Shown here in pieces: positions 12,205-48,830 of a stretch of DNA of 64,000 bases. Made by a program: the position numbers and the translations under genes. The stretch spans positions 10,133-74,132 of the IMG/VR virus record IMGVR_UViG_3300008448_000049. The stretch is one strand, 5' to 3'. Within the stretch, counting starts at the first letter, position 1. Each line of letters starts with the position of its first letter. The DNA is from a virus. Below the pieces are notes generated by a model. It was given only the letters and a program-made list of their open reading frames with translations, ran no database searches and was not told the origin of the DNA.

Positions 12205-15200
12205 ATGAGTTGTTTATCACAAGAAGAAATAAGAGATGCCCTATTTGATTTAGTAGCTGGTGATTTATATGATAAAGCTAAAGAAGATCAGGTAATTGAT
12301 TTACCCGCATATATAAAAGAAGTATATGAGTTTGTTAAAGAATCATCAGAAGATGAAGCTACAGCTATTAGTGCTGCAGCAATGGCACCAACAATAGTTA
12401 AATTAATTCTTGCTTTAGATACTGAATTAGTTGATAAAATTGAAACAAAAAATCCAGATCTTGAAAGTGATAACCTGGCATTAATAAAAAAATTTAAGAA
12501 CAATACAGATGCTGTAAGAGAAACTGTTGGTGCAACTAAACCTGTTGCTATTGATGATTCAACTCTTAAGTCTTCCGCTTCTATAAAAGTTACAGATGAA
12601 AGACCTACTTCAAAAATCAAAGAGAGTTTTAATAGATTTATGACTTGGGCCTTCCAGACTTTCCGTGTAGATATAAAAAATTATGAGAATCCAAAAGATA
12701 ATGATTGGATGAAGTCAAAAGTTGAAGAAGCTTTAAACTTTACAGTACAGAAAAAGATTAACCAAGCTTTATTTGAACAAGGTATCAATGACAGTTCTGA
12801 GATGAAACTTGATGGTGTTGAAGGTGGTGTGTACTTAAGAGCTATGAACGGTGATACCTTAAGATTAAATTATGCACCATTGATTCCTAAAACTGAAAAA
12901 GGTTGGACACCATTCTTATCTAAGTATGATATTTACATGGTCCTTACCAATGAAGCAGGTGTGCCTATACAATTTGATCCAGAAGGAACCGTAGTTAAAG
13001 ATGGTCAACTCTCTTACTTAAGAGCTAAGAGTAAAGCTCCAATGGACGCTAAAGGTAATTACATAAGTCATGAAGATAAAGAGGCTTTAGAAAAATACAT
13101 TAATAAAAATGTAAATAATGATCCTTATTACAGCAGTGCTATATCTAAAAAAACTGGTAGTGAGGCAGTAAAAGTAATTGCTAAAAGTATTCAAGAGCAG
13201 CTTGAGATGATGGCTAAAAGCTATAATCCTCTGTATGGCACTAAAAAGTTAACGGATAAGGAAAATGAAGAACTTAAAAATAGAGCTACTGATGAATTAA
13301 AAAAAGAGTATGCTGTACTAGAAAAGATGCGTGATTATGTTATAGCTAATTCTAGTAACCCTGATAAATTTTTATTGTCTGTAATGACAGGTACTTCTGA
13401 AGGGTTTGTTCCATACTCACCTTATGTAACAACGCCACTTAAAGATATTAATTTTGAACAAGGTTTCCAACCACGTGTTATAAAAGAAATTCAATCAGCA
13501 ACATCTAATGTATATCAGTCTGGTGTTTATTTTGATTATCCAAATATTGATGAGCCAATATCTATTAATAAAAAACCTTTAGTACAACAAGATGACATTC
13601 TTAACAGTGTTATTGATTTATTCACAAAAGATTTGTGGATGACTATTAACGGTGTGCTACAGCCTGTTCCTATTGGTAGAAGAGAAGAACTGATTAATCA
13701 GTTTATTGTGAATGATTTACACCATGTGTATTTCATGGCAGATAGAAAAAGTGGTACTATTAATTATGAAGATAAAGATGGTACTATAAACATAATGGTT
13801 GACGGAACACGTTACCCTTTAAAGTTTGATGGATCTAAGTCTGGTCAAGAAGCTGCAGCTGCTGCTATAAGAAAACAGTTAAGTACAGGCATGATTGTTT
13901 ATGATGAGAACGGTAGATATCCTGAAGACAAATCAATTAATACTAAACCAAAAGCATTGAAAGCTGCTAGTGCTTTAAATACTCAAATTGTATATGCTGA
14001 GTATGAAACTGATGAGAATGGTATAAAAACTATAAAGCCTAATGATTTAGAAAGAGTTAATAAACCTGGTGTGTATGCAATACAAAAAGGTACTAATTAT
14101 GATTTTGTAGGAACTAATGGACAACCTGAGTATGATTATTTTCATGCAAATGTACCATCAATTGTTATTGTTGACAAACTTATTGAGCCAGGCTATGATG
14201 AAATCTCTTTTACACAAGAGGGTGATAAAGTTATTTTAAATACAAAAAATGCATCATACAAAGACTTTCTTAAAAATAATTTCACAACTAATGCTGTTCC
14301 TTACAACTATAATAACACAGATGAGAAAGGAAAGATTGAGGTTGTAAATTCATCAGTTACTTTTTCACCTACTGCTGAGTCTATGATTAAGTTGGCAGGA
14401 GGAGAAAAAAACTCAGGAGCTGTAGATAACCAAGAAGAAATTGCTAGATTAAGAGCAGAAGAGCAAGAGTTACTAAAAAGAGAAATACCTAACATAGATG
14501 CTTATAAAGTAGATGGTAAAGTAAATCCTTTCTTAATTCCAACTACGGAAGAACGGGAGAAGTATGAAAAGATTTGGGAAGACTATGATAAAAAAATAAG
14601 CCCTTTATTAAAGTTTGCACCAGCAGAACCAAAAGCTGCAGAGACTAAACCGGCTGAGCCAACTATTGAACCATTAACTACAAAGACTACAGCATCATTA
14701 TCTCCAGAGGATATATTAAATAGCCTTAATGACATGAGTAATGAATCTGACTTTGAAAGAAATTCAAGGTTAAAGTTATCAGGTGCTCGTGGTTCTAAAG
14801 AACAATTAGATGCTGCTGCAGAGTGGTATGCTAAAAGTCCATTAAAAGAACACTTTCCATTCAAAGTTGTACTAGCTGCATTGAATGCGCAAAAACCTGG
14901 ACCAGCTGCTAGGTGGGCCGTTAATGGTATTACACTATTTAGATACTTTAATAACCCAGATGTTAGCGGTGACTATACGGATTTATACCATGAAGCATGG
15001 CACGGATTTACTCAGACATTCCTTACACCTGAAGAGAGAGAAGCAATGTATGAAGAAGCGCGTAAGAAAAAAGGTTCTTTTACAGACTACAATGGTAAGC
15101 GCGTAGCTTTTGCTGATGCTAAATGGAAACAACTAGAAGAATATTTAGCTGAAGACTTTAGAGCATACATGATGTCTGGCGGTAAGATCAAAGACAAAAC

Positions 15201-18200
15201 GTCATCAACTAAGAACGGTATCTTTACAAGAATCATGAACTTCTTGAAGGAGCTTTTCTCCGGTGTAAACATCAATGATGTTAATTATAGTCCACTAGGT
15301 ATTCCTAAAATACAAGCAATGTATGAGAACTTAAAGCTTGGTAATCTTTCTGGATACAACTTCAATGTTGAGAATAGAGATAAGACTATAGGTGCTTTAG
15401 ATCATGCTATGATTGCTAGTAAGAATGATGAAAACATGCCTGAGCTTGATTTTGAGACTACTAATAAAATAATGAGTAGTGTTAACTCAATCATATCTTC
15501 ATATACTAATACAAGAAATTTAAAAGAAGATACAAGAGTACATAGACAAGTATATAGTTACACAACTACCTTGATGAAAGATAAAACAAGAGCTCTTGAA
15601 GTTTATAAGTATATTAAATCTATTTTTGAAAATGAGGTATTGTCTAATTTGAATAGAGATTTAGCTGCTGCAAAAGCTAAGCCGGATAATGAGTATGAAG
15701 TTATAGCTCTTGAACAAGATATTACAGGTATACAATGGGCAATTAATAACTTTGGTGATCTTACAAACTTAGCAAATAACAAAGATGGCAAAGATGTAAT
15801 AGGTTACCACTTAAAAACATCCAGGTTGTTGACAGAGGAGGATAGAGCAGAGTTACTTGACGAGGTTAGTGAAGTTGATGCTTTAATAAAAGCTAGTGAA
15901 AAGTTTGACAGACCAGGTAATGATGTTGGTTCATATGATATGGCACCGCCTGAGGTTAAGTATGTACTAAGTACAATTCACAAGTGGGAAGGTACAAAGC
16001 CTGTTATGAACAGTTTTGGTATTCAAGAGCTTAGTGATCCTTCTATTGTATGGAATAGAATATCTAGAACACTTAAAGGTACAATGAGTGCTTCAGAGAT
16101 GTATGAAAAATTACAAGCTGCAGCAGGTAAAGATCCTATTATCGCAGACCTGTTAAAAAAATTAGGACCTGTTAAAACTCACACAGCAGCTGAAACAGAT
16201 TTATGGATTAAGTTCTGGACCGTGTTTAACAAAGCTGAGATTCCTTTAATGCAGATGACTGTGTTTAGAGAAAAAGATATTGAGGGTCGTGAGCTTGATG
16301 AGTACTCAATCAAGATTGGATCTAATAACTCAGTGTCTCGTATAGCTCAAACACGTTGGACAAATACATTTAGTACAGTAACTTCTGATTATAGAAAGAG
16401 AGATCCTCAAAAAGCTAATGAGATTTATCTTGATGTGAAAAAAGTAATTGAACAGTTTGGTGTAAAAGACCGTACTGGTAAATATATTTTTGAAGATGCT
16501 AAAAATTCTTATGAGTTTTTTAGAGCAATTGGTATAGAGCTTAGTGATTCTGATGAACTAAGAGATATAGTTAATAAAGGTAAAGGTAAAGCCACTAGGA
16601 TATTTGATAGATTAAACAATATCTTAAACAGAGGTACTGATAAGATTTATAATCTTAAAGACATATTTAAAGAGTATCCAGCTGTTGATAAGATTGCGGC
16701 TTTAAGTTCTGAAACAACATTAACTGACCTAGCTAATGAAGAAGTTAAATTTGCAGACTACGCGTCTAACTATGCTGTAAATAATGCTGAAGGTAATATC
16801 CAATTTGAACAAAGCTTACACAACAGTATAAGTATTATGATCAGTGCCATAAACAGTTCAAAAGATTATGCTGATCTAATTAGTAAACCTTTTATGGCTC
16901 ACTTAGATATTGATAAGAACCCGTTTGCAAAAGCTTCTGTCTGGTTGAATTCCATATATAAAATGGATGAATATAAGAAAGGCAGTACTACTGAGGTTGG
17001 GGTTAAGCGTGATCAAAAATCTGATATCAATCTTAAGGCTGCAATCAACATGTCTAATCTATCTGGTGTGTCAATTGTAAGTGATAAGAGAGATGAAGGT
17101 GTTGCCTCAGCAAGTGCTGATGAATTTACAAAATTAATTCTTGACTTTCACGTGAGTAATGTGATAGGTCGTCCAGAGTTAATGCGTCATGCTGATAAGG
17201 GTACTTCCTTCTCTTTATGGTTAAGTGATATAATAACGCCAGGATCATCAGATAATAAATCTTATGTAGATACAATTGATTTTATTAATCAGCCTTTAGA
17301 TAATGGTAGTCAATACGTGCCGGGTTATGGTAATGCATCACGTGTTTTAAAAAAATATATTGATGCTGAGATGCAAAGGATAACTAAGTTAAAAGCTCTT
17401 AAAGATCAAAAGGATTTAATATATGACGCTAAATATTTAAAGGAGGGTCAAAACTTTGTGATTTTTGAAGATGTACTTAGTCCTAAGACACGTGCATTCT
17501 TATCTAATTATCCTACTTTAGCAGAAGCTGCAGCAGTTGATCCAGATATTAGTAATGATATTGATAGAGAAATAGCCAAGTACTTTGATAATCAATCCAA
17601 ACAAGTTGGTAGGATGATGAACAGTGCTAATTATATTAGTAAGAGTTTAATGGTTAAAACAGCAACTGATGCTAATAAAGCTAATAAAGCAAACGTAACT
17701 AATAAAACTGTTAAAAATGCTTTAATAAAATCTTTTGTTGTAAACAGCTGGATACACAATATTGAGTCAATGGCTGTTATCTATGGAGACATTGCACAAT
17801 ACAAATTAGAAAAAGAAGAGTTCCATAAGCGTAATGCAGGTGCTGGTTCTACTGGTGGATTAATTGCAAGTGATCCAGTATTTATTGAGTATGTAAATAA
17901 TAAAAGCCGGTTATCTAATATTCCTGGTCGGTCAAATACATATGCCGAGAAAATGAAAATCTTTGGCAAGGATGGTCAAACAAAGAAATTAGCTAGTGAT
18001 GGTTCATTCCAGTCAGCTATACTTGAAGATAACAATATACGTTCTGAGTACTTTGAAGACATTGCTAATGCTTTAATAGACTCTGAAGAAAAAAAACTAG
18101 GTAGCAGAGAAAAAGCTATTAAGAAAGTTTTAGGTTTTGAAGTTGACAAGGAAGGAAAAGAAACAGGTAAGCTAGGTACAATAGATGAGCCATTTAAAAA

Positions 18201-21200
18201 TGGTAGTGTATATGCTTTTACTGAGATGAATGAAGGTGATGCTCAAGGCTGGATTACTTTTGACTTTTACAAAGCTACTGCAATATTAGAAGGATCATGG
18301 ACACCAGCTCAAGAAAAACTTTATAATAAAATCATAAATGAAGAACCTGTTGATTACAGTGAAGTGCTTAACTTCTTCCCTACTAAAAAGTATCAGTACT
18401 GGGGCCCTGTCCAACATAAAGACAAAGATGGTAAAGCTATTGACGGCCCGCCGTTAACAGCTTTTTATAAGTTTTCTTTATTCCCATTAATACCTAATGT
18501 AGTTAAAGGTAAAAATCTAGGTGCTTTACATACACGGATGATGGAAAAAGGTATTGACTTTGCTATGTTTGAGTCAGGATCTAAGATATCAAACTTTACA
18601 AGAATCAACGCTGATGGTAAAGCTGATAAAGATAAATTTTATTCTAGTGTTGATGGTCAAGATAGAACAGTAGATGCTACAGGAGATATGGTACCTAATA
18701 CTGTGTTCTTACAATTCTTAAAAAAGCAATTAGAGATAGCTCCATACTTTAAAGGTAAGGTTACATTCCCAACTCAAATGCGTAAGTTAATTGAGAATGG
18801 TTTAATGGAAGCTGGTGTACCTACAGATTATGAAATGCACTTGCCTGTTAAGCAAAGAGAAAAACTTTGGAGATCACTTTCTCTAGAAAAAAAATTAGAA
18901 AATTCTCAGTTTTATAGACTTGTTAAAAACTATGAGAAAGATCTTTCTGATTTAACTAAGCTTAAGATGAAAAAGCTTGAGGCTGAAGCTAGCATTAAAC
19001 GTGATGAAGATGGTAATGTTATATTCAATGAAAAACTTGCTGAGTTCATTATAAAAGAATTAGACAGACAAGACTTAGCTGAGCATGAGATAGGATTTAT
19101 TAAATCAGGAACAAACAATACACTTGCTCATGATTTATCTTATTCATTATCTGCAGAGAAGATTGAGAAGATCTTAAACTCTATTGTAGTTAAACGTCTT
19201 GTCAAACAGAAGTTTAAAGGGGAAGGTCTGATCCAAGTATCAGGTGCTGGTTTTGAAGATACTCTGCGCGGCAAACTTACTGATGAAGAAAAGGCTAAGT
19301 ACGGTACTAATGGATTAGCTTTTTATAAAAGAAAAGGTGGGCCAAATGGAACAACCTCAGCAATGAAAGTTAAGATTGCTTTACAAGGTAGCTTTGAGAA
19401 CTTGCTTTACTTGAAAGATAAAGATGGTAAAGAGATTGGTACTATTGAAAGATTAAATCAACTGCTTAAAGATGAGTCTTGGTTAGATATAGGTGATCAC
19501 CGTAAAATGGTTAGCATCACTGGACCACGTATTCCTACTCAAGAGAATAACTCTATGGAGTTTGCTGAGGTTTATGAGTTCTTACCTAGAGAAGCTGGTA
19601 ACATTGTTATACTTCCTTCTGAGATTGTAGCTAAATCTGGTGGTGACTTTGATATTGATAAGATCACATTCATGATGCCTAACATTTCCTCCGGTATAAA
19701 TTGGGCTAGCTGGTTAGAAGAAGGATCTGGTAAACGTGAAGAGTTACAAAAATCTACTACCCTAGATCTATCAGCAGAGAATGTTAAACGTGTTATTGAT
19801 AACAGAAAAGCAGATGAACTATCTGTTGAAGATCAAGCTGTATTAAGAATACTAGCTGAAAACTCTGATAAAAATGTAAAGTTTCCATTTGACAGTAAAA
19901 CTGAAGAGGGTCTTGAGAACAGAATATTAGATGATATGAAAAACATATTGTCTCTTAAAGAGAACTACGTGAGTCTTGTACGTCCTAATGGTACTGATAT
20001 TGTTAAGCCTCTTGCTGATGAGCTTTCATCTAAGGTTATGGATTATAATCCTAAGAAGCGTTTATATGATGCACCTAATAGTTCTCGTATTGCGGGTACC
20101 CGTTTGTTTGAGATTCCGTACAACATGTATAAGCATACATCAAACAGTATTGGTAAACAAACTTTAGGTCTTGGTGCTGTAGATAATACTTTTAATACAG
20201 TGTTTAACCGTATTGGTGCTAGAATGAACTACGAGTATTGGGGTAGCAGGAATGTTAAAAGACGTTTGGATTTATTATTTAATCACAATACTTTACAAGA
20301 TGATCAAGGCCGTGATGTAATTTCATTATCTCACTTGATGGATGTTAATAATGATAACAGTATATCTTCAATAATTGGTCAGCTTATTAATGGCTGGGTG
20401 GATATTGCTAAGGATGCTTGGATCTTTAACTTACAAGGGAACAAAGAGATATCACCATCTTTATTATTTTTAGTTCAAGCTGGTGTACCTTTAAAACAAG
20501 CTGTGTATTTTGTATCTCAACCTATTATCAGAGAGTATGTAAAAGAAATGCAGCAAGCTAAAAGCACATTTGCTGGACCTATGGGTAAAGGAACTGATAA
20601 TCCTAACTTGTTTAGAGGTGAAGCGCGTAAAGTAATCTTTAAAAAACTAGGTTATGACGCATCTCAAATGGCTGTCTTTAATGAGAATAATGAGAAGAAG
20701 CAAGAGTTTTTAGATAAACGTACCTTAGAACTTACTGATAAGAAAACAGGATCTGAGATTGATTTCTTTAATCCTGATAAAGTTGAAGCTAATTTAAAAA
20801 ATAAAATTGATGCTTACGCTAATGCTGTTAAAGAGCAACAAGAATCATCAGATTCAGAAGCTCCATTGAATTACAATTATGACGTTAAAGATGAGGCTAT
20901 ATTCTTACACTTCCTTGAAGTAGAAGAGATGACTAATTCAGCAACTAAGTTTAAAATGGCTTTAAATGTTGATACAACTAAAACAAACAACATCTTTCAA
21001 GCTCAAAATAAAAATGAGATCATTAAAGATTTACAAACTGATGGTAAATTACCAGCAGAAATTGTAAAACTTATCCAAGAGGAATCTCCAATAGGCAGCT
21101 TTTTTACACAAGACTTTCAAATTGGTTTATGGAAAAATCTATTTAAGTTGAGAAATGACGATGATCTTAACAAGTGGATCTTGAATAAGACTAGACAAAT

Positions 21201-24200
21201 GGGCTTTAAAGATGAGGTTGATGAAACCTTTGGTGATGATGAGAGATTTGTAAACAACTTGAGAAATGACTGGATAAGCTTTTTATTCCAAAATCAGATA
21301 CGCAAATTTGATATAGATAAGGTTAAAGATTATAAAGGTCTTGTAATTCAGGATACTCTTGGTGTTAAGTTAGCACCTAGTATTAAGTATGGTGTGTTTG
21401 TAGCTCCGGATAAAACGGGAGCACTGACTGTTTATATGGATAAAGTAAAGTTGAGACAAGACTTTGCAAAACTATCTAACAGCACAAGCTTAGAAACTGC
21501 AACCCTTCTTCCTGACGGTACAATAATTAAACCGGCTGATGTTGATGCTGCAGCGTTCCCTACACCTGATACCTATTACAAATTTGTAATTGAGAGAGAG
21601 TTATTAAGAGCTATGTATCCTGGTAAAACAAAATGGTCAGTATTATTAGAACGTGCTGATGTTTCCCGCAAATTGAAAGACGCATTAGAATCTGGGCCAA
21701 CTTTTGAAGGTGAATCAAAACAGAAGAGAGAAGCTCGTATTAATACTGAAGTTTATGAAGAGACTCTACGTGACATGGCTTTAGAGAATACTTATAACAC
21801 TTGGAAGATGTTCCAAAGTCGTACCTCTATGGCTGATCAATTTAATGAGATTGCTGCATTATATCCAGAGCTTAGAAAAAACTACAGCTTAATGAATATA
21901 CTTACAGGTACAATCCGTAATGATAAAAACAATTCCAACCGTATTGGTAACTTACAATTACTGGATTCTCTTTTAGATGGTACTAAGTTGAACTTGTTAC
22001 ATCAGAACTTAAAAGACATGTCTGATCCTACTAAGTTAAGAATCAATGTTAAGTCTGCTCAAGAGAGAACTCGTATTGCTGAATTCTTTAACAAGTTTGG
22101 TCTATATGCGTTTTTACAATCAGGTTTAAATACTAGTGGAAGATTCTCATTAACAAGAGTAGTTCCTCAAGAGATGTTTACTGCAATGATGAGTGAATAC
22201 ATGGGTGACTTTATGAAGAACATGAATGAGCTTACCTTTGAACGTTACTATACAAAGTTTAAAGCTATCAATAGTAGAGCTGGTTCAACATCATACCGTG
22301 ATTACACAGTGCCTGAATTTGATATGGCTGCAGATAAAAATAAAGTTGTTGACAATCCTGTTGGAAGTGCCAAAGAATTAATGTTTAACGAAAAAAAATC
22401 AAGAATAGATAATTTTTATCTTGACAATGCTGGTAACAAACTTTATCATGCTAATGAGTTTAGCCTTAATAAAGAAGATACTATGCAAGCTATAACTATG
22501 ACTCAAGCTGCTGACATACTTGAAAGCAGACCTACAGAAGTAATTATCTTTAATGGTACTGATGGAACTACGGCTGGTCAAGGTACAAAAGGTGAGGCTG
22601 CATTTGATGCTTCCCTATCTACACACAGTAATCTTATTGCATTCCCTGTTAAAAAGAGTTATGAAATGATAAGTGGTAATATACCAAACAGCGCACTTAT
22701 AACTGATATCTCAATAGAAGAAGCTGAAAGAATGAAAGCTGAGATTAAACAACAGGAAAAAATCATTAATAACCTTGTTTCAGGTCCTAAACTAGAAGTG
22801 GGAGTATATGCTGAATACAAAGGTGATAATTACATTGTGACTAAAAAGCTTGATAATGGAACATGGCAACTTTATAATCCTGACATAGGTAGTAAACTAG
22901 CAGTTAGTCCTAGCAACTTTGCATTACTTATGGATAAACCTATTTCTCTAACCAATAGAGATGTTAAGTACTGGGTAAGTCCATTACACAATAATGCTAT
23001 TATATCTCAAGTAAGCAATAACAAAATGAACTGGCCTGATGAGAATGGTGTTAAAAGAGAAATAATGGCTAAGGTACAAAGTCAAAGTTCTAACAAAAAT
23101 GCTGATCAACAAAACATTACTCAACCTGCTCAGAATACTTTTAAATTTGCTGACGGAACTATTATTGATACGCCATTCAAACTTAATGAGCAACAGGAGA
23201 AAGCGTTGTTATCTCTTGAGAATTTTTATAACAAGCCAGGAGAGTATGATAATCAAATTACCTTGCTTGGTTATGCCGGTACAGGTAAGACTAGTATCAT
23301 CACAATCTTTGATAACTATTTAAAAAAGAAATTTGTTAAACCTCTATACAGTTCTCCAACACACAGAGCTAATGCTGTAACTAAGATGAAGAATCCTAAA
23401 GCTGCAGTATATACTTTACATAAATTGTTTGGTTTAAAAGGTCAAATCAAATTTGAAGATGGTGATTATGATTTAAGAGATTTGAATTTTGCAGCATTTG
23501 ATAAAGATGGCAAGCTTAATAAAAACGCTAAAGTTCAAAAGGGTGATATCTTAATTGTTGATGAAGCATCAATGGTTAATGACGCGCTTTATGATTTCTT
23601 AGAGAAGTTTAAACAGATTCTTAATCTTAAGATTATTTACATGGGTGATCCAGCTCAGTTAAAACCTGTTAAGCAAAAAGACTTGTCTAAAACTTTTGAG
23701 AAAGGAACACAGTTACAACTTACCAAAGTTGAAAGAACAGGTGACAATCCTATATTAGAAGAAGCGACCAACTTGAGAAATGGTAAAGATTTTAATTACC
23801 AGACTAAAATGATTGGGGAGCAAGGTGTTGAATACTCTGATGAAGCTAATTTCACAAACAGAATAATTGGAGAAAACTACACAAGTGATGAGTTTAAAGA
23901 TAACAAGCTTTATTTTAGAATTCTATCTGCAACCAATGCTGTTCTTCCAGGTATTAACAGAAGAGTAAGAGAGTTACTTTACGGTGATGAAGCTGATAAA
24001 CAACTTGTGAAAGGTGATTTATTGATGGGTAATAATAACTTTGATATAGATTATAAGACCAAGCAACCATTGATTATAAACAGTGGTGACTATATAGTTG
24101 ATAGCATTGAGGAGTCTGTAAAAACATTACCTGTAGGTAACAAGACAATCAGCTTTAATGGTTTTCAAGTTAGACTTAAGAATGTATTAGATCCAGAAGA

Positions 24201-26130
24201 GTCTGCTAAGAGTGTATTTATTGTAAGCAATAATGAGTCAGATGAGAAGTTAAAAGATTTCATGAATGAGATTGACCGTTTAAATAAACAAGCTGAAGAT
24301 TTTAGAAATCGCGGACAGTTTAGTGCTTCTGCTCAACTTTTTGCTGAGGCAAATGAACTTCAGTCTAGTCTTGCATTTATGAAAGATCTAGTATCTGATA
24401 ACAACAAAGTAAAAGTTAAAAAGACTTTAGACTATGGTTATGCTCACACTATCCACAAGTCACAGGGAGGAACCTATAACAAAGTACTAATACTTGCTGA
24501 TACTATTGATAGTCATAGAGATCCAGAAACACGTCAACAACTTAAGTATGTTGCAATGTCAAGAGCTTCTGAAAAGGTATATGTATCTACTAGTCATGAG
24601 TTAGGTACACCAATCATACGTGATGGCCTTGTCGCTCCTGGTGACGTAGCTCCAACTGTAGAGCCTGTTGAAAGTAAGCAACCACAAGCTTCTACAAGTA
24701 CTAAACCTGATATTATTTTACCAATTGGTACTTCAGGCAGTGGTAAATCTACTTGGATAAAATCTTTACCTAAAGGGCAATTTACTTTAATATCTCCTGA
24801 TGAAATGAGAGTGGAGTTTACCGGAGATATGAATGATAAATCTAAAGATGATGAAATATATAAGGCTGTAACAGAAAGAGCTATAAAAGCTGTAAAAAGT
24901 GGCAAGCAAGTAATCATTGATACTACTAATCTTAAGAAGGAAAGAAGAAGACCATTCATAGAAGCTGTCAAAAAAGCAATGCCTAATGCAAATATTCAGT
25001 ATAAGCTTATGCCATTGAATGCAGAATTAGCTAAACAAAGAATAAAAGCAGATATTGCTGCAGGAGTTAATAGAGCAAATGTATCAGATGAAACCATAGA
25101 TAGACATGCTGCATCATATAAAGAGATGTTAGAAGATATTAAATCTGAAGATATGTCTAATTATGATACTCAGCCACAAGCTTCTATAACTACTGATAAG
25201 TTTGCTAAGAAGAATATATTTACTGTAAAGCCTATACAAACAGCTGATACAAAAGCTATTATTAAAGCAAGTATAGCTACTCAGTTTATAGGATTTGGTG
25301 AAGGTATTGAAAGAAGCTCAACAGAAAGTTATAGACAACAAGTAGGAGCATTAGCTAATACAGGTAACTACTCAAAGGATGATGTTATATTTGTGTCTAT
25401 TGGTGGTAAAAGACCTGCTAACAATTTAGAACTCAGGAAAGCTCAACAAGATAGAACTATTAGAGAAGCTTTAAAAGCTATTGAAGCAGGTGCTACTATA
25501 CTTACTGATAATATAAATTACATACATACTGATAATAAAGGTAATCTTCAAAATGTAAATATGAGTGTAGAAGAATTTACTAAAACACAAGGTTTGTATA
25601 ATGAAGGTGAAAAAAGACTTGCTAAAAATCTTGAATCTAAAGGATATAACTACTCTGAAATAACAGTAGATGGTCAGCTTATTGGTACATGGAGTAAGCC
25701 ACAAGAAAGTAACATACCACAAGATACGCGTAATGGTGAGGACGTGCAGGATGATAGTAAAACTCCCCGTCCAATTAACGGTATGGTCATGGACCCCTTC
25801 TTTAAAAAGAAAATTGATAAGACTATACAGTCTATGCAACAGAAAAAGAATGCGGGTATGACGCTTGACTTTCCTGTTAATGGTATTGGACAGCACATGA
25901 TTGGAGCTGACCCTAACACTGGAAAATTAATTGGTGATATTAAGCCTATTGCATTATCAAGTTTCGTATATTTGTCTGAGCAGCTATTTGAGAAATTTGG
26001 GTATGTTAATCCTAACTATGAAAAGGTACTTGGATACATTGGGGAACAGAGCCCGATCCAAGCTGCTTCTGAAGTTACTGATGACATGCTTGACACAGCC
26101 CTTAGCTTTTGCTTTAACAATATAGTATAA
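12205..26130 (+). CDS. Virion-packaged two-barrel RNA polymerase polyprotein (zincin + RNAP + SF1 helicase + P-loop kinase + further domains), 4641 aa
   Basis: RIPTQ (~19528) and GGDFDIDK (DFDID at 19645-19659) match crAss-like RNAP catalytic motifs. DAQGWIT at ~18238. HEAWH at 14989. Helicase motifs GYAGTGKT, DEASM, GDPAQLKPV, HKSQG and YVAMSRA. Kinase motif GTSGSGKST. Confidence 0.9.
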   Translation: MSCLSQEEIRDALFDLVAGDLYDKAKEDQVIDLPAYIKEVYEFVKESSEDEATAISAAAMAPTIVKLILALDTELVDKIETKNPDLESDNLALIKKFKNNTDAVRETVGATKPVAIDDSTLKSSASIKVTDERPTSKIKESFNRFMTWAFQTFRVDIKNYENPKDNDWMKSKVEEALNFTVQKKINQALFEQGINDSSEMKLDGVEGGVYLRAMNGDTLRLNYAPLIPKTEKGWTPFLSKYDIYMVLTNEAGVPIQFDPEGTVVKDGQLSYLRAKSKAPMDAKGNYISHEDKEALEKYINKNVNNDPYYSSAISKKTGSEAVKVIAKSIQEQLEMMAKSYNPLYGTKKLTDKENEELKNRATDELKKEYAVLEKMRDYVIANSSNPDKFLLSVMTGTSEGFVPYSPYVTTPLKDINFEQGFQPRVIKEIQSATSNVYQSGVYFDYPNIDEPISINKKPLVQQDDILNSVIDLFTKDLWMTINGVLQPVPIGRREELINQFIVNDLHHVYFMADRKSGTINYEDKDGTINIMVDGTRYPLKFDGSKSGQEAAAAAIRKQLSTGMIVYDENGRYPEDKSINTKPKALKAASALNTQIVYAEYETDENGIKTIKPNDLERVNKPGVYAIQKGTNYDFVGTNGQPEYDYFHANVPSIVIVDKLIEPGYDEISFTQEGDKVILNTKNASYKDFLKNNFTTNAVPYNYNNTDEKGKIEVVNSSVTFSPTAESMIKLAGGEKNSGAVDNQEEIARLRAEEQELLKREIPNIDAYKVDGKVNPFLIPTTEEREKYEKIWEDYDKKISPLLKFAPAEPKAAETKPAEPTIEPLTTKTTASLSPEDILNSLNDMSNESDFERNSRLKLSGARGSKEQLDAAAEWYAKSPLKEHFPFKVVLAALNAQKPGPAARWAVNGITLFRYFNNPDVSGDYTDLYHEAWHGFTQTFLTPEEREAMYEEARKKKGSFTDYNGKRVAFADAKWKQLEEYLAEDFRAYMMSGGKIKDKTSSTKNGIFTRIMNFLKELFSGVNINDVNYSPLGIPKIQAMYENLKLGNLSGYNFNVENRDKTIGALDHAMIASKNDENMPELDFETTNKIMSSVNSIISSYTNTRNLKEDTRVHRQVYSYTTTLMKDKTRALEVYKYIKSIFENEVLSNLNRDLAAAKAKPDNEYEVIALEQDITGIQWAINNFGDLTNLANNKDGKDVIGYHLKTSRLLTEEDRAELLDEVSEVDALIKASEKFDRPGNDVGSYDMAPPEVKYVLSTIHKWEGTKPVMNSFGIQELSDPSIVWNRISRTLKGTMSASEMYEKLQAAAGKDPIIADLLKKLGPVKTHTAAETDLWIKFWTVFNKAEIPLMQMTVFREKDIEGRELDEYSIKIGSNNSVSRIAQTRWTNTFSTVTSDYRKRDPQKANEIYLDVKKVIEQFGVKDRTGKYIFEDAKNSYEFFRAIGIELSDSDELRDIVNKGKGKATRIFDRLNNILNRGTDKIYNLKDIFKEYPAVDKIAALSSETTLTDLANEEVKFADYASNYAVNNAEGNIQFEQSLHNSISIMISAINSSKDYADLISKPFMAHLDIDKNPFAKASVWLNSIYKMDEYKKGSTTEVGVKRDQKSDINLKAAINMSNLSGVSIVSDKRDEGVASASADEFTKLILDFHVSNVIGRPELMRHADKGTSFSLWLSDIITPGSSDNKSYVDTIDFINQPLDNGSQYVPGYGNASRVLKKYIDAEMQRITKLKALKDQKDLIYDAKYLKEGQNFVIFEDVLSPKTRAFLSNYPTLAEAAAVDPDISNDIDREIAKYFDNQSKQVGRMMNSANYISKSLMVKTATDANKANKANVTNKTVKNALIKSFVVNSWIHNIESMAVIYGDIAQYKLEKEEFHKRNAGAGSTGGLIASDPVFIEYVNNKSRLSNIPGRSNTYAEKMKIFGKDGQTKKLASDGSFQSAILEDNNIRSEYFEDIANALIDSEEKKLGSREKAIKKVLGFEVDKEGKETGKLGTIDEPFKNGSVYAFTEMNEGDAQGWITFDFYKATAILEGSWTPAQEKLYNKIINEEPVDYSEVLNFFPTKKYQYWGPVQHKDKDGKAIDGPPLTAFYKFSLFPLIPNVVKGKNLGALHTRMMEKGIDFAMFESGSKISNFTRINADGKADKDKFYSSVDGQDRTVDATGDMVPNTVFLQFLKKQLEIAPYFKGKVTFPTQMRKLIENGLMEAGVPTDYEMHLPVKQREKLWRSLSLEKKLENSQFYRLVKNYEKDLSDLTKLKMKKLEAEASIKRDEDGNVIFNEKLAEFIIKELDRQDLAEHEIGFIKSGTNNTLAHDLSYSLSAEKIEKILNSIVVKRLVKQKFKGEGLIQVSGAGFEDTLRGKLTDEEKAKYGTNGLAFYKRKGGPNGTTSAMKVKIALQGSFENLLYLKDKDGKEIGTIERLNQLLKDESWLDIGDHRKMVSITGPRIPTQENNSMEFAEVYEFLPREAGNIVILPSEIVAKSGGDFDIDKITFMMPNISSGINWASWLEEGSGKREELQKSTTLDLSAENVKRVIDNRKADELSVEDQAVLRILAENSDKNVKFPFDSKTEEGLENRILDDMKNILSLKENYVSLVRPNGTDIVKPLADELSSKVMDYNPKKRLYDAPNSSRIAGTRLFEIPYNMYKHTSNSIGKQTLGLGAVDNTFNTVFNRIGARMNYEYWGSRNVKRRLDLLFNHNTLQDDQGRDVISLSHLMDVNNDNSISSIIGQLINGWVDIAKDAWIFNLQGNKEISPSLLFLVQAGVPLKQAVYFVSQPIIREYVKEMQQAKSTFAGPMGKGTDNPNLFRGEARKVIFKKLGYDASQMAVFNENNEKKQEFLDKRTLELTDKKTGSEIDFFNPDKVEANLKNKIDAYANAVKEQQESSDSEAPLNYNYDVKDEAIFLHFLEVEEMTNSATKFKMALNVDTTKTNNIFQAQNKNEIIKDLQTDGKLPAEIVKLIQEESPIGSFFTQDFQIGLWKNLFKLRNDDDLNKWILNKTRQMGFKDEVDETFGDDERFVNNLRNDWISFLFQNQIRKFDIDKVKDYKGLVIQDTLGVKLAPSIKYGVFVAPDKTGALTVYMDKVKLRQDFAKLSNSTSLETATLLPDGTIIKPADVDAAAFPTPDTYYKFVIERELLRAMYPGKTKWSVLLERADVSRKLKDALESGPTFEGESKQKREARINTEVYEETLRDMALENTYNTWKMFQSRTSMADQFNEIAALYPELRKNYSLMNILTGTIRNDKNNSNRIGNLQLLDSLLDGTKLNLLHQNLKDMSDPTKLRINVKSAQERTRIAEFFNKFGLYAFLQSGLNTSGRFSLTRVVPQEMFTAMMSEYMGDFMKNMNELTFERYYTKFKAINSRAGSTSYRDYTVPEFDMAADKNKVVDNPVGSAKELMFNEKKSRIDNFYLDNAGNKLYHANEFSLNKEDTMQAITMTQAADILESRPTEVIIFNGTDGTTAGQGTKGEAAFDASLSTHSNLIAFPVKKSYEMISGNIPNSALITDISIEEAERMKAEIKQQEKIINNLVSGPKLEVGVYAEYKGDNYIVTKKLDNGTWQLYNPDIGSKLAVSPSNFALLMDKPISLTNRDVKYWVSPLHNNAIISQVSNNKMNWPDENGVKREIMAKVQSQSSNKNADQQNITQPAQNTFKFADGTIIDTPFKLNEQQEKALLSLENFYNKPGEYDNQITLLGYAGTGKTSIITIFDNYLKKKFVKPLYSSPTHRANAVTKMKNPKAAVYTLHKLFGLKGQIKFEDGDYDLRDLNFAAFDKDGKLNKNAKVQKGDILIVDEASMVNDALYDFLEKFKQILNLKIIYMGDPAQLKPVKQKDLSKTFEKGTQLQLTKVERTGDNPILEEATNLRNGKDFNYQTKMIGEQGVEYSDEANFTNRIIGENYTSDEFKDNKLYFRILSATNAVLPGINRRVRELLYGDEADKQLVKGDLLMGNNNFDIDYKTKQPLIINSGDYIVDSIEESVKTLPVGNKTISFNGFQVRLKNVLDPEESAKSVFIVSNNESDEKLKDFMNEIDRLNKQAEDFRNRGQFSASAQLFAEANELQSSLAFMKDLVSDNNKVKVKKTLDYGYAHTIHKSQGGTYNKVLILADTIDSHRDPETRQQLKYVAMSRASEKVYVSTSHELGTPIIRDGLVAPGDVAPTVEPVESKQPQASTSTKPDIILPIGTSGSGKSTWIKSLPKGQFTLISPDEMRVEFTGDMNDKSKDDEIYKAVTERAIKAVKSGKQVIIDTTNLKKERRRPFIEAVKKAMPNANIQYKLMPLNAELAKQRIKADIAAGVNRANVSDETIDRHAASYKEMLEDIKSEDMSNYDTQPQASITTDKFAKKNIFTVKPIQTADTKAIIKASIATQFIGFGEGIERSSTESYRQQVGALANTGNYSKDDVIFVSIGGKRPANNLELRKAQQDRTIREALKAIEAGATILTDNINYIHTDNKGNLQNVNMSVEEFTKTQGLYNEGEKRLAKNLESKGYNYSEITVDGQLIGTWSKPQESNIPQDTRNGEDVQDDSKTPRPINGMVMDPFFKKKIDKTIQSMQQKKNAGMTLDFPVNGIGQHMIGADPNTGKLIGDIKPIALSSFVYLSEQLFEKFGYVNPNYEKVLGYIGEQSPIQAASEVTDDMLDTALSFCFNNIV
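23170..24595 (+). other. Dda/RecD-like SF1 helicase domain within the RNAP polyprotein
   Basis: LNEQQ, Walker A GYAGTGKT (23269-23292), PTHRA, IVDEASM, GDPAQLKPV, YGYAHTIHKSQG and YVAMSRA. Confidence 0.9.
24706..25165 (+). other. Polynucleotide kinase-like (AAA_33-type) P-loop domain within the RNAP polyprotein
   Basis: IGTSGSGKSTW, ISPDEMR and IIDTTNL, followed by a lid-like segment ELAKQRI. Confidence 0.8.
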
Positions 26131-26135
26131 CCAAT

Positions 26136-29100
26136 ATGATAACATGTCCTAATCTTAGTAATCCTACTGTGAAAGCACAGTGGGATGCTATTGCTAATAA
26201 CCCTGCTCTAGGTAATAGAGAAGCCATGCGTGAATTCATGGAAGCTGAAATGAATAACAGGCCTATTGGTACACCTGAACAGGTGATGGCTAAACTTGAA
26301 GCTAGGGAAGTAGTAAACCCTATAGCAAGTCATGACAAGTTTGTTGCAGATATGAAAAATATTATAGCTGCTAAGTCTAATGACCCTGTACTTACTGACC
26401 CAGATACACTCTACGGCTTTGCTTCCGTAGTACAACCTATTAATACTAAATCATTATCTGTTACTGATAACAGTAACGGCCGTGCTATGGAAGTCTTAAA
26501 CAAGCTTTCTGAGGCAACAGGCATTAATTACTCTTTCATTACACCGGAGGAAGCAGTAATCATCACTGCTAATTCCAAGAACCCATACACTATAGGTAGA
26601 GCACCCGCATTTTTCCACGGGGGCACTGTATACTTCATTAATGGTATGGTTAATACAGAACTTGCTTTCCATGAATTTGCTCACCCAATTGTTCGCACTA
26701 TACAACAGGACAACCCTGTTCTATTTGAAAAACTATATATGGACGCTATTAGAGCTGACCAGACTCTTTTGGATGAAGCTATTGCAGAGTATCAAGATTT
26801 ACAAAAGGCACTTGACAATGCTGTTGAAGATGAAGAGAAAGATGCTATCAGACTTAAGTTACAGAAAGCTGTTGCGGAAGAAGTAATTGTTAAAGCACTT
26901 ACTAGAGGAGCAATGCTTAAAGAAGCGGGTATTAAACCAAGCACTGGATTAGCTAAAGCACTTAACAATATATTAGCTGCTATTAAAAAGATGCTGAGGA
27001 GCGTCTTTGGCAATAAAGTAAATGTAGCCAAGTTGGATGAAACTACTTCACTTGACAAGCTTGCCGAGATGTTACATGCCGGCGGGAACTTTGTTATAAA
27101 CACTGAGACTGTAAGCCAGGCGGATGTTGTTGCGTATAATCAAGACTTTCAAAATTATGTGAATGATTTAAAGCAAGCTACTGAAGGTGACAAAGGCCAA
27201 GCTGTGATGGCTATGGCTAGAAGAATTTATGAAGGTGCTACTGATCAAATTGAAATGATTATGAAGAACAAGAATTATCAGGAGATGATTAACTTGTTTG
27301 CCGATCAATACAACCGTGGTGACTTACAGGAGATGCGTGCTAATGTATCCCGTTATGCCCGTGAGCTTGAGACCAAAGCTGAATCAATGATTGAAGATAT
27401 CCAAAAGACTCAGAGTCAGGTACAATCTGTTGTAGGCGCTATGCTCCGTTTAAAAGTCATGATGACTAAAATGGAAGAGCACTTGAATGAATTAAGAAAG
27501 GACGCTACTAATAGAGACAACGTACACAGAGCTTACTACTATGCACGAGTACTTGAGTATTGGCAAAAGTATATTTCTGAAGCTCAAGATATGATGATTA
27601 AAGCAGGTGCCAAATCTGATTCTCCAATGAATCAATTGCTTGGTAGTATAGAAACTTCTATGAAAACTTCTGCTAAACACATCAACCAGATGAACAATGA
27701 AGGTATCTCTGATATCTTATGGGAACAATGGGAGAGCATGTCTAATAGAGCTGAAGAGTTATTTAAAGATAAGATTAAAAGATTAGAAGACCGGAACGCT
27801 AGCCAAGCTGCAATAAATAAAGAGTACGTTAAATTCTACGGTATGAATAAAGCTGATTATGAGCGTTACAAAATGCTTCAGGCTAAACAAGAATCAGGTC
27901 AGGATTTAACTTATGAAGAGAGTAAGGATTTAGAGATTGGTAAGAAAGCCAGCTTTGATGGTATAGTTATGTCTCGTGAAAAAGTTGCCCGTGCTATTCG
28001 TGGTGAGGGAGCAGATGCTAGATACATTGAGTCTTATTTTGAAGGATACCTTTATAGTAGTGACCCCGTAATTGGTGGCTTTGCTTTGTACTTTAAAAAC
28101 AACATGACTGAGATGGAAGCTAGAGTACAATCTAGAGTTAGCGGCATGTCGGGAGCACTTAAAGAATTAATTGATGATGCTGGCATAAACTTTTTAAAAC
28201 CAGGAGAGCTTGGTAAAAAGATAGGCTTTGTGGATAAGTTTGGATACATTGATAAGAATGGGACTTTCCAACAAAAAGAAGTATGGGCAATGCTTAATCC
28301 TTACAAGGATTATAGATATGATGTTGATAGGTTTAACAATGAGTTAAAAGGTTTACGTGACCGTTATAACAGAGACCGTAGTAAAGAGAACCAGGAAGCG
28401 TTTGCTGCTAAGCTTGCAGAGAAGAATGCTCACATGCGTAAATGGATGCAACAAGAATACGTTGATGAGTACTATGAAAAAGATGACTTACTTGGTAAAG
28501 ATGCATCAGATACTGTAGGACAAAGAGCTAAGTTCTTGAGAGATGAAATCTTTAATAGAATGGAGATTATTAATCTTGCAGCTAATAGAGATGACCAGTT
28601 AGTAGATAACACTAAAGAGATGGACGATCTGTGGAAAGAGTACAATCAACTGTATTCCTCCTATTACTTAAACGGACAAAAGAAAACAGGTGTTGATCTT
28701 GAAGTTGCCCAACGTTTACAACAACATAGAGATCTTACTCGCAAGTTCCATGAGTATAAACCTAGAACTGGTGTATATGAGAATGAACTAGCTAAGAAGG
28801 AACAACAGATCCGTGACAACTTAATCTCATTACAATATGAAGAAGGTACTGAAGAGTTTGATGATCAGTTTGAAGCTTACCGTGATATGTGGATTAAAGC
28901 AAATACAGTTACTAAAATTAAACCTGAGTTTTATGAAATACGTTCAAAACTAATTGAGAATCTTAAAGAGATATTAGGAAGACCTGCAGCTAGACTTAGA
29001 CAACAATTAAAAGATCTTGAGGCTAAAGGTATTAAAACCGCAGCTGACAGAGCGTTAAAAAAAGACTTAGAAGATAAATTAGTCTCTGCTGATACTAAGG

Positions 29101-31952: not shown

Positions 31953-31968
31953 CTCAACATCTAGTTGG

Positions 31969-32000
31969 AAAAAAAAAGGAGAACCCCGTAAGGTTCTCCT
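31969..32000 (-). terminator. Intrinsic terminator at the convergence of the two transcription blocks
   Basis: Stem AGGAGAACC/GGTTCTCCT (31977-32000) with an A9 run on the + strand, giving a U-tract for the - strand transcript. Confidence 0.85.
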
Positions 32001-32022
32001 CTATAATCTAACTTTGTACCCC

Positions 32023-32658: not shown

Positions 32659-32660
32659 AA

Positions 32661-38496: not shown

Positions 38497-39519
38497 TTAT
38501 AAGATTACTTTTGTTTTTGCAAATTTGTATGGCAAGTTATAATTCTTCTCATTATAATGCCACGCCGCTTCAGTCAACTTCTCTTCTAGTTTAATTTGCC
38601 AATCAGCTAAAGTATCTTTACTTACTTCAAATACATACACCTGTTGATATCTATCAATAACTACAAAGTTGAATACAATTTTATAATCCTGCATGATTAA
38701 TTCAGCATACTGATATGCAGCTAACCTTTCATAAACAGCAGCCTGGGCCCAATAGTTATAAAAGTCTACGGTTTCAGGAAAATCTACAATGGTCTTACCT
38801 GTAGTCTTTAAGTCATTGACGTAGATAATTCTAGCATCATGGTCAATTTTTACATTGTCCACAACACCTTTTAATCCAAAGGGTTTATCTGTATGATCAA
38901 CAGCCATGAAGATCTCATTATAAACATCTATGTTATCCATCTCAGATCTCATTAATCCAAGTAGCTCACGTACTTCATCATGATTGCGTAAAACTTCTAC
39001 AGCTTCTGTACAACGCTGCATGGTAACAGAGTCTAGTAGATCTTTGTTACCTTTAATCTTCAGAAATTCAAAGTATGACTTTGCATCCTCAGTCAATATT
39101 TTCTCTAATCTTTTTTCATCTCCCGTTTTAAATGGAGCTTTCTTGTCATCCGCTAGAGCCTGGTGTAACTTTATCTCTTTTAAATAATCCAATATCTCTA
39201 CTGAATAATTTTCAAGAAGTGTTGGTTCTCCGGACACTCTTTCATAGATAGCATCTACTAATCTGCGAGTATTCTCTGTAGGTAGTGTGCTTGGCATAAG
39301 TATGAACTGGTTGTTGAATGAACCATCATCTAGTAATAAACAGTGTATTACTTTTCCATCTATAAGATAGCTGTCTAACTTTTCCTCTTGCTCCTGTAAC
39401 ACATAGTGTTTATAATACAGGGAAGGAGAGTAAAGCATTTTGTTTAGTCCTGAATAACTCAGGAGCAAAGGCCGAGCATAAAACTCAGCCTCTAGTTCTT
39501 GTTTTGTTTTTTTGGTCAT
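38497..39519 (-). CDS. PD-(D/E)XK exonuclease (RecE/DUF3799-like)
   Basis: LSYSGL, G..IH, E...LKG.VD...DLKTT and Y..QAAVY motifs. Confidence 0.85.
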   Translation of the reverse strand: MTKKTKQELEAEFYARPLLLSYSGLNKMLYSPSLYYKHYVLQEQEEKLDSYLIDGKVIHCLLLDDGSFNNQFILMPSTLPTENTRRLVDAIYERVSGEPTLLENYSVEILDYLKEIKLHQALADDKKAPFKTGDEKRLEKILTEDAKSYFEFLKIKGNKDLLDSVTMQRCTEAVEVLRNHDEVRELLGLMRSEMDNIDVYNEIFMAVDHTDKPFGLKGVVDNVKIDHDARIIYVNDLKTTGKTIVDFPETVDFYNYWAQAAVYERLAAYQYAELIMQDYKIVFNFVVIDRYQQVYVFEVSKDTLADWQIKLEEKLTEAAWHYNEKNYNLPYKFAKTKVIL

Positions 39520-47659: not shown

Positions 47660-48280
47660 TTATTTTACTTCTGTTGCTGTTACATTAATGATCTCAGCTA
47701 TTGTTCCATCATCATTTCTCCTTACGTCTGACTCTTTCAAGAATGTATCAGCCATTTCCTCCGCTGTATATAATCCTAATAATAAATCAGCACCTATTCT
47801 GTTTGCACCTTTAGCTAAACAGCGAGCGTATAACATTTCCTTTGGCATACGCTTCCAGTTATCCTTAGTAGTTAAACCTTGTAACTCAGCATCTCTCCAA
47901 GTGAATGAACAAATTTCTTCCATACCATCTCTTACAAACTTAATAGTAGTTCTTCTACCATCAGGTTTCTGATCAGGGCTAGTAGGTTCTGTCCTATTAC
48001 CATAGGTGAATACACCATCTTCTACAGTTACAAAAGCGATACCGCCTTTTCTCAATAAAGCATTTGTTGCTTTAGCAGATAAGCTTAGCTTGCCTTGAAT
48101 AGGTATGATGTAATGAAAGGCCTGCATTGTTGGGAAGCCTAACTCTTTACCCATCTGTGCAATAGTAAACGCATCTTCTACAGTTTTAATGTGGGTTGGT
48201 AGTTTCTTTGATTCTATCAAAGTACTTAAGAATTGCTTAAGAGCATCTTCTGTTGTGGTTGTTACTTGGTTGTTTTCCAT
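47660..48280 (-). CDS. RecT/Redbeta-like ssDNA annealing protein
   Basis: G.ELG..PMQA-like motif, I.GK and WKRMPKEML.AR. Likely start is the ATG at 48280, just past the upstream stop. Confidence 0.75.
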   Translation of the reverse strand: MENNQVTTTTEDALKQFLSTLIESKKLPTHIKTVEDAFTIAQMGKELGFPTMQAFHYIIPIQGKLSLSAKATNALLRKGGIAFVTVEDGVFTYGNRTEPTSPDQKPDGRRTTIKFVRDGMEEICSFTWRDAELQGLTTKDNWKRMPKEMLYARCLAKGANRIGADLLLGLYTAEEMADTFLKESDVRRNDDGTIAEIINVTATEVK

Positions 48281-48281
48281 T

Positions 48282-48830
48282 CTATGATTGTTTAATGATT
48301 TCATTTAACCACGGCTTTTGACTTACTGGTCTCTTTAACATAATTGCTGCTAAATCTCTAATAGTTAATTGATCTAATGGCAAGTCTGTATTAGCATCTA
48401 CTAATTCAAATTCCATTTGTTCAATTGGTTCTACTACAGGAGCTGATGTTTCATTCTCCGGAGCTTTAACATAAGTTAATTCCTCTGTTGGAACAAGATA
48501 TCTGATATGACCAGTAACCGGATGAGGTTCCGTCTTATCATATTCTTCTTCAAAGTGAGGATTAAAACGCCATTTGTATAAGCGTCTTTCAGGATCTTCA
48601 GGTACTAATTCTTTACTAGTGAATTCTACGTATACGTCTTCACCCTTGTTAATCTCACTTGCAAAAAATGCAATGTGCTGTTCTGTTTTTCCATATGGTC
48701 TATATGCCATCTTAGGAATAAACAAAGCGTCTGATACACCTATAGCATCAAGAGTTTTTTGATGATACTCTCTCAACTTTTTAAGTCTATCACGCTTGTC
48801 TTCTGGTTTGTCTGTTGTTGATATGCTCAT
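48282..48830 (-). CDS. Hypothetical protein
   Basis: 182-aa ORF coupled to dnaB. Confidence 0.75.
   Translation of the reverse strand: MSISTTDKPEDKRDRLKKLREYHQKTLDAIGVSDALFIPKMAYRPYGKTEQHIAFFASEINKGEDVYVEFTSKELVPEDPERRLYKWRFNPHFEEEYDKTEPHPVTGHIRYLVPTEELTYVKAPENETSAPVVEPIEQMEFELVDANTDLPLDQLTIRDLAAIMLKRPVSQKPWLNEIIKQS

Follow-up and report, generated by a model that had tools for sequence, protein, structure and literature searches.

How can a giant phage protein gain, lose and exchange whole enzymatic domains while its reading frame is kept? The question is raised by a 64,000-nucleotide (nt) stretch of virus DNA, referred to below as the window (positions 10,133 to 74,132 of IMG/VR record IMGVR_UViG_3300008448_000049), and in particular by a giant open reading frame (ORF) at 12205..26130 (+). 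Its product of 4641 amino acids (aa), P0001, is identified from the ORF list, its translation and tblastn as a crAss-like virion RNA polymerase (RNAP) polyvalent protein. The source is a 74-kb record that is approximately 61% complete, and the public runs holding the sequence of the window are lake water, freshwater and sediment metagenomes. An earlier note on this DNA had claimed that short in-frame repeats bound domain cassettes inside this gene and may let phage recombination add, drop or shuffle them. We found that cassettes are gained, lost and replaced at these linkers, that the same cassettes lie between linkers in distant phages and at either end of the protein, and that the linker is conserved at the nucleotide level. 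It is therefore probable, in our view, that the in-frame linkers are crossover sites that shuffle the effector domains of a giant virion-RNAP polyvalent protein in freshwater crAss-like phages.

The window lineage carries three such linkers. Repeat 1, CAACCACAAGCTTCTA (24679-24694), and repeat 2, CAGCCACAAGCTTCTA (25171-25186), are identical at 15 of 16 positions and encode QPQAS in frame of the ORF at residues 4159-4163 and 4323-4327, just as the earlier note had read them; the similarity runs on to 24 nt, of which 21 are identical (QPQAS[T/I][S/T]T). Linker copy 1 (QPQASTST; 24679..24702, +) and linker copy 2 (QPQASITT; 25171..25194, +) bracket a P-loop kinase cassette (AAA_33/polynucleotide-kinase-like; 24703..25170, +), whose match to PF13671 (AAA_33; E 8e-17) covers residues 4171-4307 and profile positions 2-142 of 143 and falls between the two copies. 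The cassette also matches phrog_505 (E 1e-14), and the full-length profile match combined with a P-loop (Walker A GTSGSGKST, residues 4175-4183; 24727-24753, +) argues for an AAA_33 kinase; in other phages, kinase homology spans residues ~4160-4325. The third linker, KPQES (25696..25710, +), starts with AAGCCACAAG (25696-25705), lies in frame at residues 4498-4502 and, again as had been proposed, closes the next domain, domain X (residues 4328-4497; 25195..25695, +). Domain X is a predicted alpha/beta domain (AF2 model, pLDDT 74); Foldseek against the PDB returned only weak Rossmann-like methyltransferase rows (TM 0.3-0.4), and a VIA wide search gave a best Z of 5.3 and no clear fold match. 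Linker 3 is followed by a conserved C-terminal domain (residues 4503-4641; 25711..26130, +), which is 97-98% identical in two of the relatives described next (L003 and P0004).

In three close relatives (L003, L018 and L019), the sequence matches the window at 15918-24684 and at 25700-33056 with 94-97% nt identity, and the DNA between these blocks is unrelated. The breakpoints coincide with the repeats: homology ends at 24684, in repeat 1, and returns at 25700, in repeat 3. The insert of these relatives codes for a diverged version of domain X (X') and, after it, an AlkB-like 2OG-Fe(II) oxygenase (PF13532, E 1.4e-15), and at the site of linker 1 a sister phage carries CAACCATCTACT, which is of the canonical linker type discussed below. 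A database protein of 4467 aa (P0004), with 94% identity in residues 1-4160 and 98% in residues 4498-4641, presents KQPST-[NADAR]-QPQES at the cassette site, its junctions being read at the protein level. In another relative, L020 (82-86% nt identity), homology stops at 22725 and resumes at 25701; the whole helicase block and the kinase are absent, and the cassette site holds one linker (TTQQSASV) and a third version of domain X. Leaving L020 outside the group, at least six forms occupy this one cassette site in one lineage: [kinase]-[X] in the window, [X']-[AlkB-like], [NADAR], a form without the kinase, a form without domain X, and the kinase followed by TQPST and other sequence. All variants keep the reading frame, and the same breakpoints are seen in separate sets of data: independent contigs from IMG/VR and JGI, one protein-database entry and the Logan contigs of two further studies. 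A DNA search of an annotated phage collection with 22000-26200 returned only a 174-nt helicase match (cr50_1) and no close relative, either cultured or uncultured. Gene content also varies further downstream, where a 240-aa deoxynucleoside monophosphate kinase gene (33053-33775, -; phrog_139, E 5e-47) is missing in L018, L019 and L020, which are otherwise 86-97% identical; homology there jumps from 33056 to 33772.

Deletion of single cassettes was observed in metagenomes, for which Logan contigs of four runs, the likely source run being excluded, were placed on 21500-27500. The kinase deletion that the earlier note had predicted exists: a contig of run X3 joins 24695 to 25188 and skips 492 nt, comprising the kinase and one repeat copy, with a short side of 59 letters, 4 mismatches in 300 and the crossover inside the extended repeat. 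The same run holds kinase-containing and kinase-deleted contigs together. Domain X is deleted in contigs of runs X3 and X5, from two studies, which join 25171 to 25697 and skip 525 nt; this joint crosses nine shared letters, AGCCACAAG, and its short side measures 90 letters in X3 and 32 letters in X5. In addition, another X3 contig continues from the kinase into TQPST and different sequence, and in an X5 contig the module that precedes the kinase (2 mismatches in 300) is a different one. Because the repeats are shorter than the 31-letter words of the assembler, these joints are not graph artefacts.

Beyond this lineage, a widespread form of the linker was found, ACTCAACCATCTACTAGTGTT, whose seven codons encode TQPSTSV. 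The linkers of the window appear to be diverged, lineage-specific copies of this wider 21-nt family, as suggested by alignments at equivalent positions: linker copy 2 aligns with a canonical TQPSTSV before domain X in L031 and with TQPQAPTTT in P0099, and in the distant phage L025 TTQPSTSV stands directly after the helicase and is followed by NADAR. The window contains no canonical linker, outside it the 74-kb record yields only one chance-like 14/16 match, and the private linker of the window, CARCCACAAGCTTCTAYA (QPQAS form), has no match elsewhere in the viral contig collection. For an 18-mer of the canonical form, CAACCATCTACTAGTGTT, 57 exact copies were found, spread over 45 viral contigs; all of them encode QPSTSV in large ORFs and are in frame, and eight contigs carry 2-4 copies at a spacing of 450-810 nt. 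Core homology to the giant proteins of the window (21-35%) was found at 38 of 51 loci with the 18-mer, a few of which also have cassette matches of 46-73%. A search for the 21-mer in bacterial and archaeal genomes, 596 Gb in all, found no copy. In the literature, the QPSTSV motif occurs in no phage paper that we found, and nothing relevant was found on domain shuffling in crAss RNAPs.

The conservation of the linker extends to its synonymous sites. In a set of linker-class copies gathered by a search blind to synonymous codons, 47 of the 55 are fully canonical, compared with 2.1% expected from the codon usage of the same ORFs. Where the residue is the same, codon identity reaches 0.87-1.0 within the linker, compared with 0.4-0.9 (mostly 0.5-0.75) for the flanks. 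Amino-acid identity is already close to background (mostly 6-12%) two residues upstream and one residue downstream of the linker. The earlier note had named two outcomes that would speak against its in-frame cassette reading, namely homologue breakpoints away from the repeats and a similarity explained by amino-acid constraint alone; neither was observed, and three of its four proposed checks (relatives, deletion junctions and synonymous sites) came out clearly in its favour. In the fourth, codon usage, the cassettes differ from the core only modestly, with a G+C content at third codon positions (GC3) of 0.16 for the kinase and 0.12 for domain X compared with 0.23 for the core. The codon-usage outlier of the gene is the C-terminal domain (25705-26127), with a GC3 of 0.36 against 0.23 for the core and a place in the lowest percentile of core blocks; despite this atypical usage, it is the best-conserved piece among relatives (97-98%).

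The same cassettes were found between linkers in phages whose cores are far diverged. P/Q/S/T linkers separate helicase, P-loop kinase, domain X, AlkB-like oxygenase, NADAR, ART-PolyVal, cpYpsA and DUF7831, and the cassettes adjacent to linkers include AlkB-like, ART-PolyVal, DUF7831 and cpYpsA domains. The giant ORF of L021 contains four (T)TQPSTSV copies, exact over 22-27 nt and bounding three mutually unrelated modules, upstream of a zincin-like segment. Its second module is 88% identical at the nt level to the X' cassette of L003, with homology that starts and stops in the flanking linkers, despite a C-terminal domain that is only 26% identical to that of the window. Similarly, the kinase of P0010 is 88% identical to that of the window with a core that is ~29% identical, and it is located at another hot spot, at residues 628-802, ahead of the part of the core that is alignable to P0001 from residue 854 onward. 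Among 120 homologues, the position of the kinase ranges from residue 52 to residue 5448. Homologues of domain X in five phages have linkers on both flanks in all cases, and modules combine freely across the linker, one upstream family being joined to six downstream families and another to seven. In L100 and L104, the domain X homologue appears to be split by ~100 additional residues, which fall between the positions corresponding to residues 4380 and 4383 of the window protein and are not accompanied by a linker.

The linker copies of one genome are more like each other than like copies elsewhere. In L009, the kinase and the next domain are flanked by three copies of a different linker of 36-42 nt (TNSQSS..PVS), which was found only in its own contig, and in P0010 both flanking linkers share a P-to-L change (TQL), so that with the QPQAS form of the window private variants common to the flanking copies are seen in three lineages. 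This within-genome likeness suggests that linkers exchange sequence with one another or that the target linker is duplicated when a cassette is inserted. The zincin-like segment carries the HExxH motif HEAWH (residues 929-933 of P0001; 14989..15003, +) and is also kept in the distant relatives L021/L042 and P0010. Directly upstream of it lie the three linker-bounded cassettes of L021 and the kinase cassette of P0010, which points to a second insertion hot spot. Often, the canonical linker is followed by an adaptor of ~35 aa (K-E-G-V-S-E-L-F-E-S-N-P-E-L-A...; L048, L053, L062, L065, L066, L098, L121 and L125), which precedes different domains (kinase, ART-PolyVal and others), and a related ...LANxVYEALGFK stands directly before many kinases. 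When the DNA of all linker loci was compared pairwise, few close pairs emerged and only L024/L045 was added. These two contigs have the C-terminal tail of another giant protein in common (97% identity) and differ in the cassettes between the canonical linker and this tail.

The remainder of P0001 agrees with its assignment. When P0001 was compared by tblastn with the RNAP genes of crAss001, cr50_1 and cr118_1, residues 2315-2877 were found to be related to the 'putative RNA polymerase' of crAss001 (23.5% identity, E 1e-13), and residues 1841-2790 align to cr108_1; on the basis of this homology the RNAP core is placed at residues ~1841-2885 (17725..20859, +). It includes the motif DFDID (DxDxD type; residues 2481-2485; 19645-19659, +), which, following the work on phi14:2 gp66, we take to be the metal-binding catalytic motif of the two-barrel centre. 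The helicase block (residues 3508-4158; 22726..24678, +) contains a Dda-like superfamily 1 (SF1) helicase at residues 3562-4127 with matches to PF13604 (AAA_30; E 1e-17), PF13538 (UvrD_C_2; E 1.6e-10) and phrog_325 (E 1.4e-71); an ATPase core, a UvrD_C_2 match and a Walker A motif (GYAGTGKT, residues 3689-3696; 23269-23292, +) together identify the SF1 Dda-like type. TQPAQ, which the earlier note had placed before the helicase, is indeed in frame at 23119-23133 (residues 3639-3643) ahead of the helicase core, and the helicase homology of distant phages starts near it (residues 3631-3645). No recombination breakpoint was seen at TQPAQ, and the homology of L020 breaks at 22725 instead. Pfam has no family for domain X, for the C-terminal domain or for residues 3466-3665. 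The gene downstream of P0001 is another giant ORF, of 1938 aa. With RNAP core, SF1 helicase, AAA_33 kinase and HExxH segment united in one chain of 4641 aa, P0001 combines at least two unrelated enzymatic domains in one polypeptide, as is characteristic of polyvalent proteins. The polyvalent signature domains PF18760, PF12694, PF08719 and PF13532 are present in homologous giant proteins and in the linker-adjacent cassettes of relatives; none of the four was found in P0001 itself.

The way in which such cassettes might move can be outlined as follows. Every linker copy starts on a codon boundary, so that a crossover between any two copies would give an in-frame fusion. The crossing copies could belong to one genome or come from co-infecting relatives, and crossovers would delete, insert or swap whole domains, in a manner comparable to exon shuffling without introns. 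The identity of the linker DNA would be the substrate of short-homology recombination, and the agent would probably be the phage exonuclease with a RecT-like annealase, or template switching during replication. Candidates for both enzymes are encoded in the same genome, a RecT-like single-strand annealing protein (47660..48304, -; phrog_4171, E 7e-12) and an exonuclease VIII-like gene (38497..39519, -; phrog_412, E 4.6e-22), a possible partner of the annealase, and both may act at the linkers. The 9-nt joint may owe its origin to template switching or to linkers that were older and had diverged less. The shuffled domains would be injected effectors, injection being extrapolated from other crAss-like phages. 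Going further, second-order selection might maintain the 21-nt TQPSTSV sequence as a dedicated recombination signal at the nucleotide level, a crossover site that preserves the frame, is common to many crAss-like phages and lets them trade the effector domains of injected polyvalent proteins combinatorially; we put this forward tentatively, its chances being slightly under even.

Several observations weigh against crossover at the linkers. The left break of L020 (22725) and the right junction of L024/L045 are not at a linker, and in the 120 homologues only ~10% of kinase copies follow the canonical linker, the others following a different adaptor, which suggests that the canonical-linker junction of the kinase is recurrent and not universal. 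The junction contigs represent distinct strains with their own single-nucleotide polymorphisms, and hence polymorphism and not ongoing events. Red/RecT-type annealases use roughly 20-50 nt efficiently, and the domain X joint, with only nine shared letters, is well below this. Nor is the 16-nt repeat exceptional on its own: it is within what the gene yields by chance-like processes, since in-frame 15-nt pairs with at most one mismatch number 28 over the whole gene compared with 9.5 in codon shuffles, and 6 compared with 0.75 expected within 200 codons. It is the comparative and metagenomic evidence that makes the QPQAS repeat more than chance. Finally, any binomial P for the canonical codons is overstated, because the 55 linker copies are phylogenetically non-independent.

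Part of this evidence would suit linkers that are passive domain boundaries, with illegitimate recombination occurring anywhere and selection keeping the in-frame, domain-preserving products. Breakpoints would then pile up in spacers, and the repeats would be footprints of past insertions or reflect a need for flexible P/Q/S/T spacers. The statistically unremarkable 16-nt repeat, the mere 9-nt microhomology of the domain X deletion and the many junctions without canonical linker fit such a view, as does the fact that breakpoints will be seen at the ends of any segment that has been replaced. We nevertheless regard it as unlikely, for amino-acid constraint cannot give 47 of 55 copies with one codon set where ~2% are expected, and passive boundaries do not explain why codon identity is so much higher in the linker than in its flanks, why copies identical over 22-27 nt in one genome bound unrelated modules, or why flanking copies share private variants in three lineages.

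Alternatively, the linker could be mainly a processing site: TQPSTSV-type linkers would be cleaved by a host protease, or by the peptidase-like domain with the HExxH motif, and the effectors thereby freed. Its conservation would then be substrate specificity, a role that could coexist with one in recombination. Autoprocessing by peptidase domains has been proposed for polyvalent proteins (PMC5512222), the motif lies exactly between domains, and the HEAWH at residues 929-933 may signal peptidase activity of that segment, for which a Pfam scan of the whole of P0001 gave no peptidase family at E <= 0.01. This explanation appears quite improbable, since it leaves the synonymous-site conservation unexplained, and since the QPQAS, KPQES and L009 linkers differ in amino acids yet hold the same positions. 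Slightly less probable still is homing-like spread, in which the 21-nt linker would be the target of a sequence-specific nuclease or recombinase and a cut empty linker would be repaired from a co-infecting genome with a cassette. The DNA-conserved 21-mer does contain the palindrome ACTAGT, and homing-endonuclease/HNH-type genes are located in the replication block of the window (42176-42964, -, and 43734-44954, -; phrog_7168/314 and phrog_1314); on the other hand, no nuclease was found in the cassettes examined, cassettes are also bounded by linkers that are diverged or private, and no integrase was found among the 20 larger neighbouring ORFs scanned. That the whole pattern is a product of chance similarity and assembly artefacts is scarcely credible: although this gene is AT-rich and has many short near-repeats in frame, and the runs were analysed as contigs, the same breakpoints occur in the independent IMG/VR, JGI, protein-database and Logan data, the repeats are below the assembly word length, and the frame is kept in all variants.

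Polyvalent proteins are regarded as the first weapons of a phage to enter the cell, and their domain make-up is highly varied, the origin of this variety having been left open. The locus offers a concrete answer that can be tested, a translated 21-nt junction (15-24 nt in the copies of the window) that is conserved as DNA and at which whole domains are exchanged in frame. If the DNA identity is causal, it would explain the rapid turnover of effectors in an abundant and mostly uncultured phage order, would make the linker a sequence tag for new effector domains in metagenomes, whatever lies between linkers being a candidate, and would suggest a natural design rule for modular multi-domain phage proteins. 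Should the linker also be a dedicated signal, it would be a prokaryotic-virus counterpart of exon shuffling.

Similar to crAss-like virion RNAPs (phi14:2 gp66, the virion RNAP of crAss001), P0001 combines RNAP core homology, DFDID and a position in a giant late gene block. In the Suoliviridae cr50_1 and cr118_1, too, the RNAP protein includes a fused SF1 helicase, and it ends a few residues past this helicase; in contrast, the protein of the window continues with kinase, domain X and the conserved C-terminal domain. Packaging of the RNAP in the virion and its ejection are established for crAss-like relatives (review PMC10136315). Similar to the polyvalent proteins described by Iyer, Burroughs, Anand, de Souza and Aravind (2017), for which entry into the host with the DNA was proposed (PMC5512222), the family consists of giant phage chains of helicase, kinase, peptidase-like, ART-PolyVal, cpYpsA, NADAR and AlkB-type domains with a highly variable architecture, and family members of P0001 carry the Pfam domains ART-PolyVal and cpYpsA. 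The text of that account contains neither 'linker' nor 'shuffling' and raises recombinational variability as a possibility for one locus only (PMC5512222); here, in contrast, a specific in-frame junction conserved as DNA and direct gain and loss polymorphisms are documented.

Outside this group of proteins, integrons likewise separate unrelated cassettes by one short repeat, and direct repeats flank each cassette, as they would after insertion of a circle into a site. Integron gene cassettes, as well as the 'linker/boundary sequences' of Botstein's modular theory, are comparable in this respect. Here, no attC structure was seen and no integrase was found among the 20 larger neighbouring ORFs scanned, the junction is translated inside one frame, and the units are protein domains and not genes. 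In T-even phages, tail-fibre adhesins are reportedly exchanged at short conserved motifs called 'His boxes', as Tetart and colleagues are said to have described in 1998. In both cases short conserved motifs within a phage gene allow modules to be swapped in frame by recombination; there the modules are receptor-binding segments of a structural protein, whereas here they are enzymatic effector domains of a protein that carries an RNAP, and very distant genomes have the motif in common. In polymorphic toxins (Rhs, CdiA, MuF), a conserved pre-toxin motif allows the C-terminal toxin cassette to be replaced (PMC3482391). There, as here, a short coding motif borders a variable domain that recombination swaps in frame, and in the window lineage linkers were found at every cassette border examined. 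Unlike toxin cassettes, those described here are internal, several in a row, with the same linker on both sides, and belong to a lytic-type phage and not to a bacterial toxin locus. Neither immunity genes nor orphan cassettes were noticed, no search having been aimed at them. Crossover at short conserved coding motifs is thus already known in principle from polymorphic toxins and T-even fibres, and what is new is the form that it takes in this polyvalent protein.

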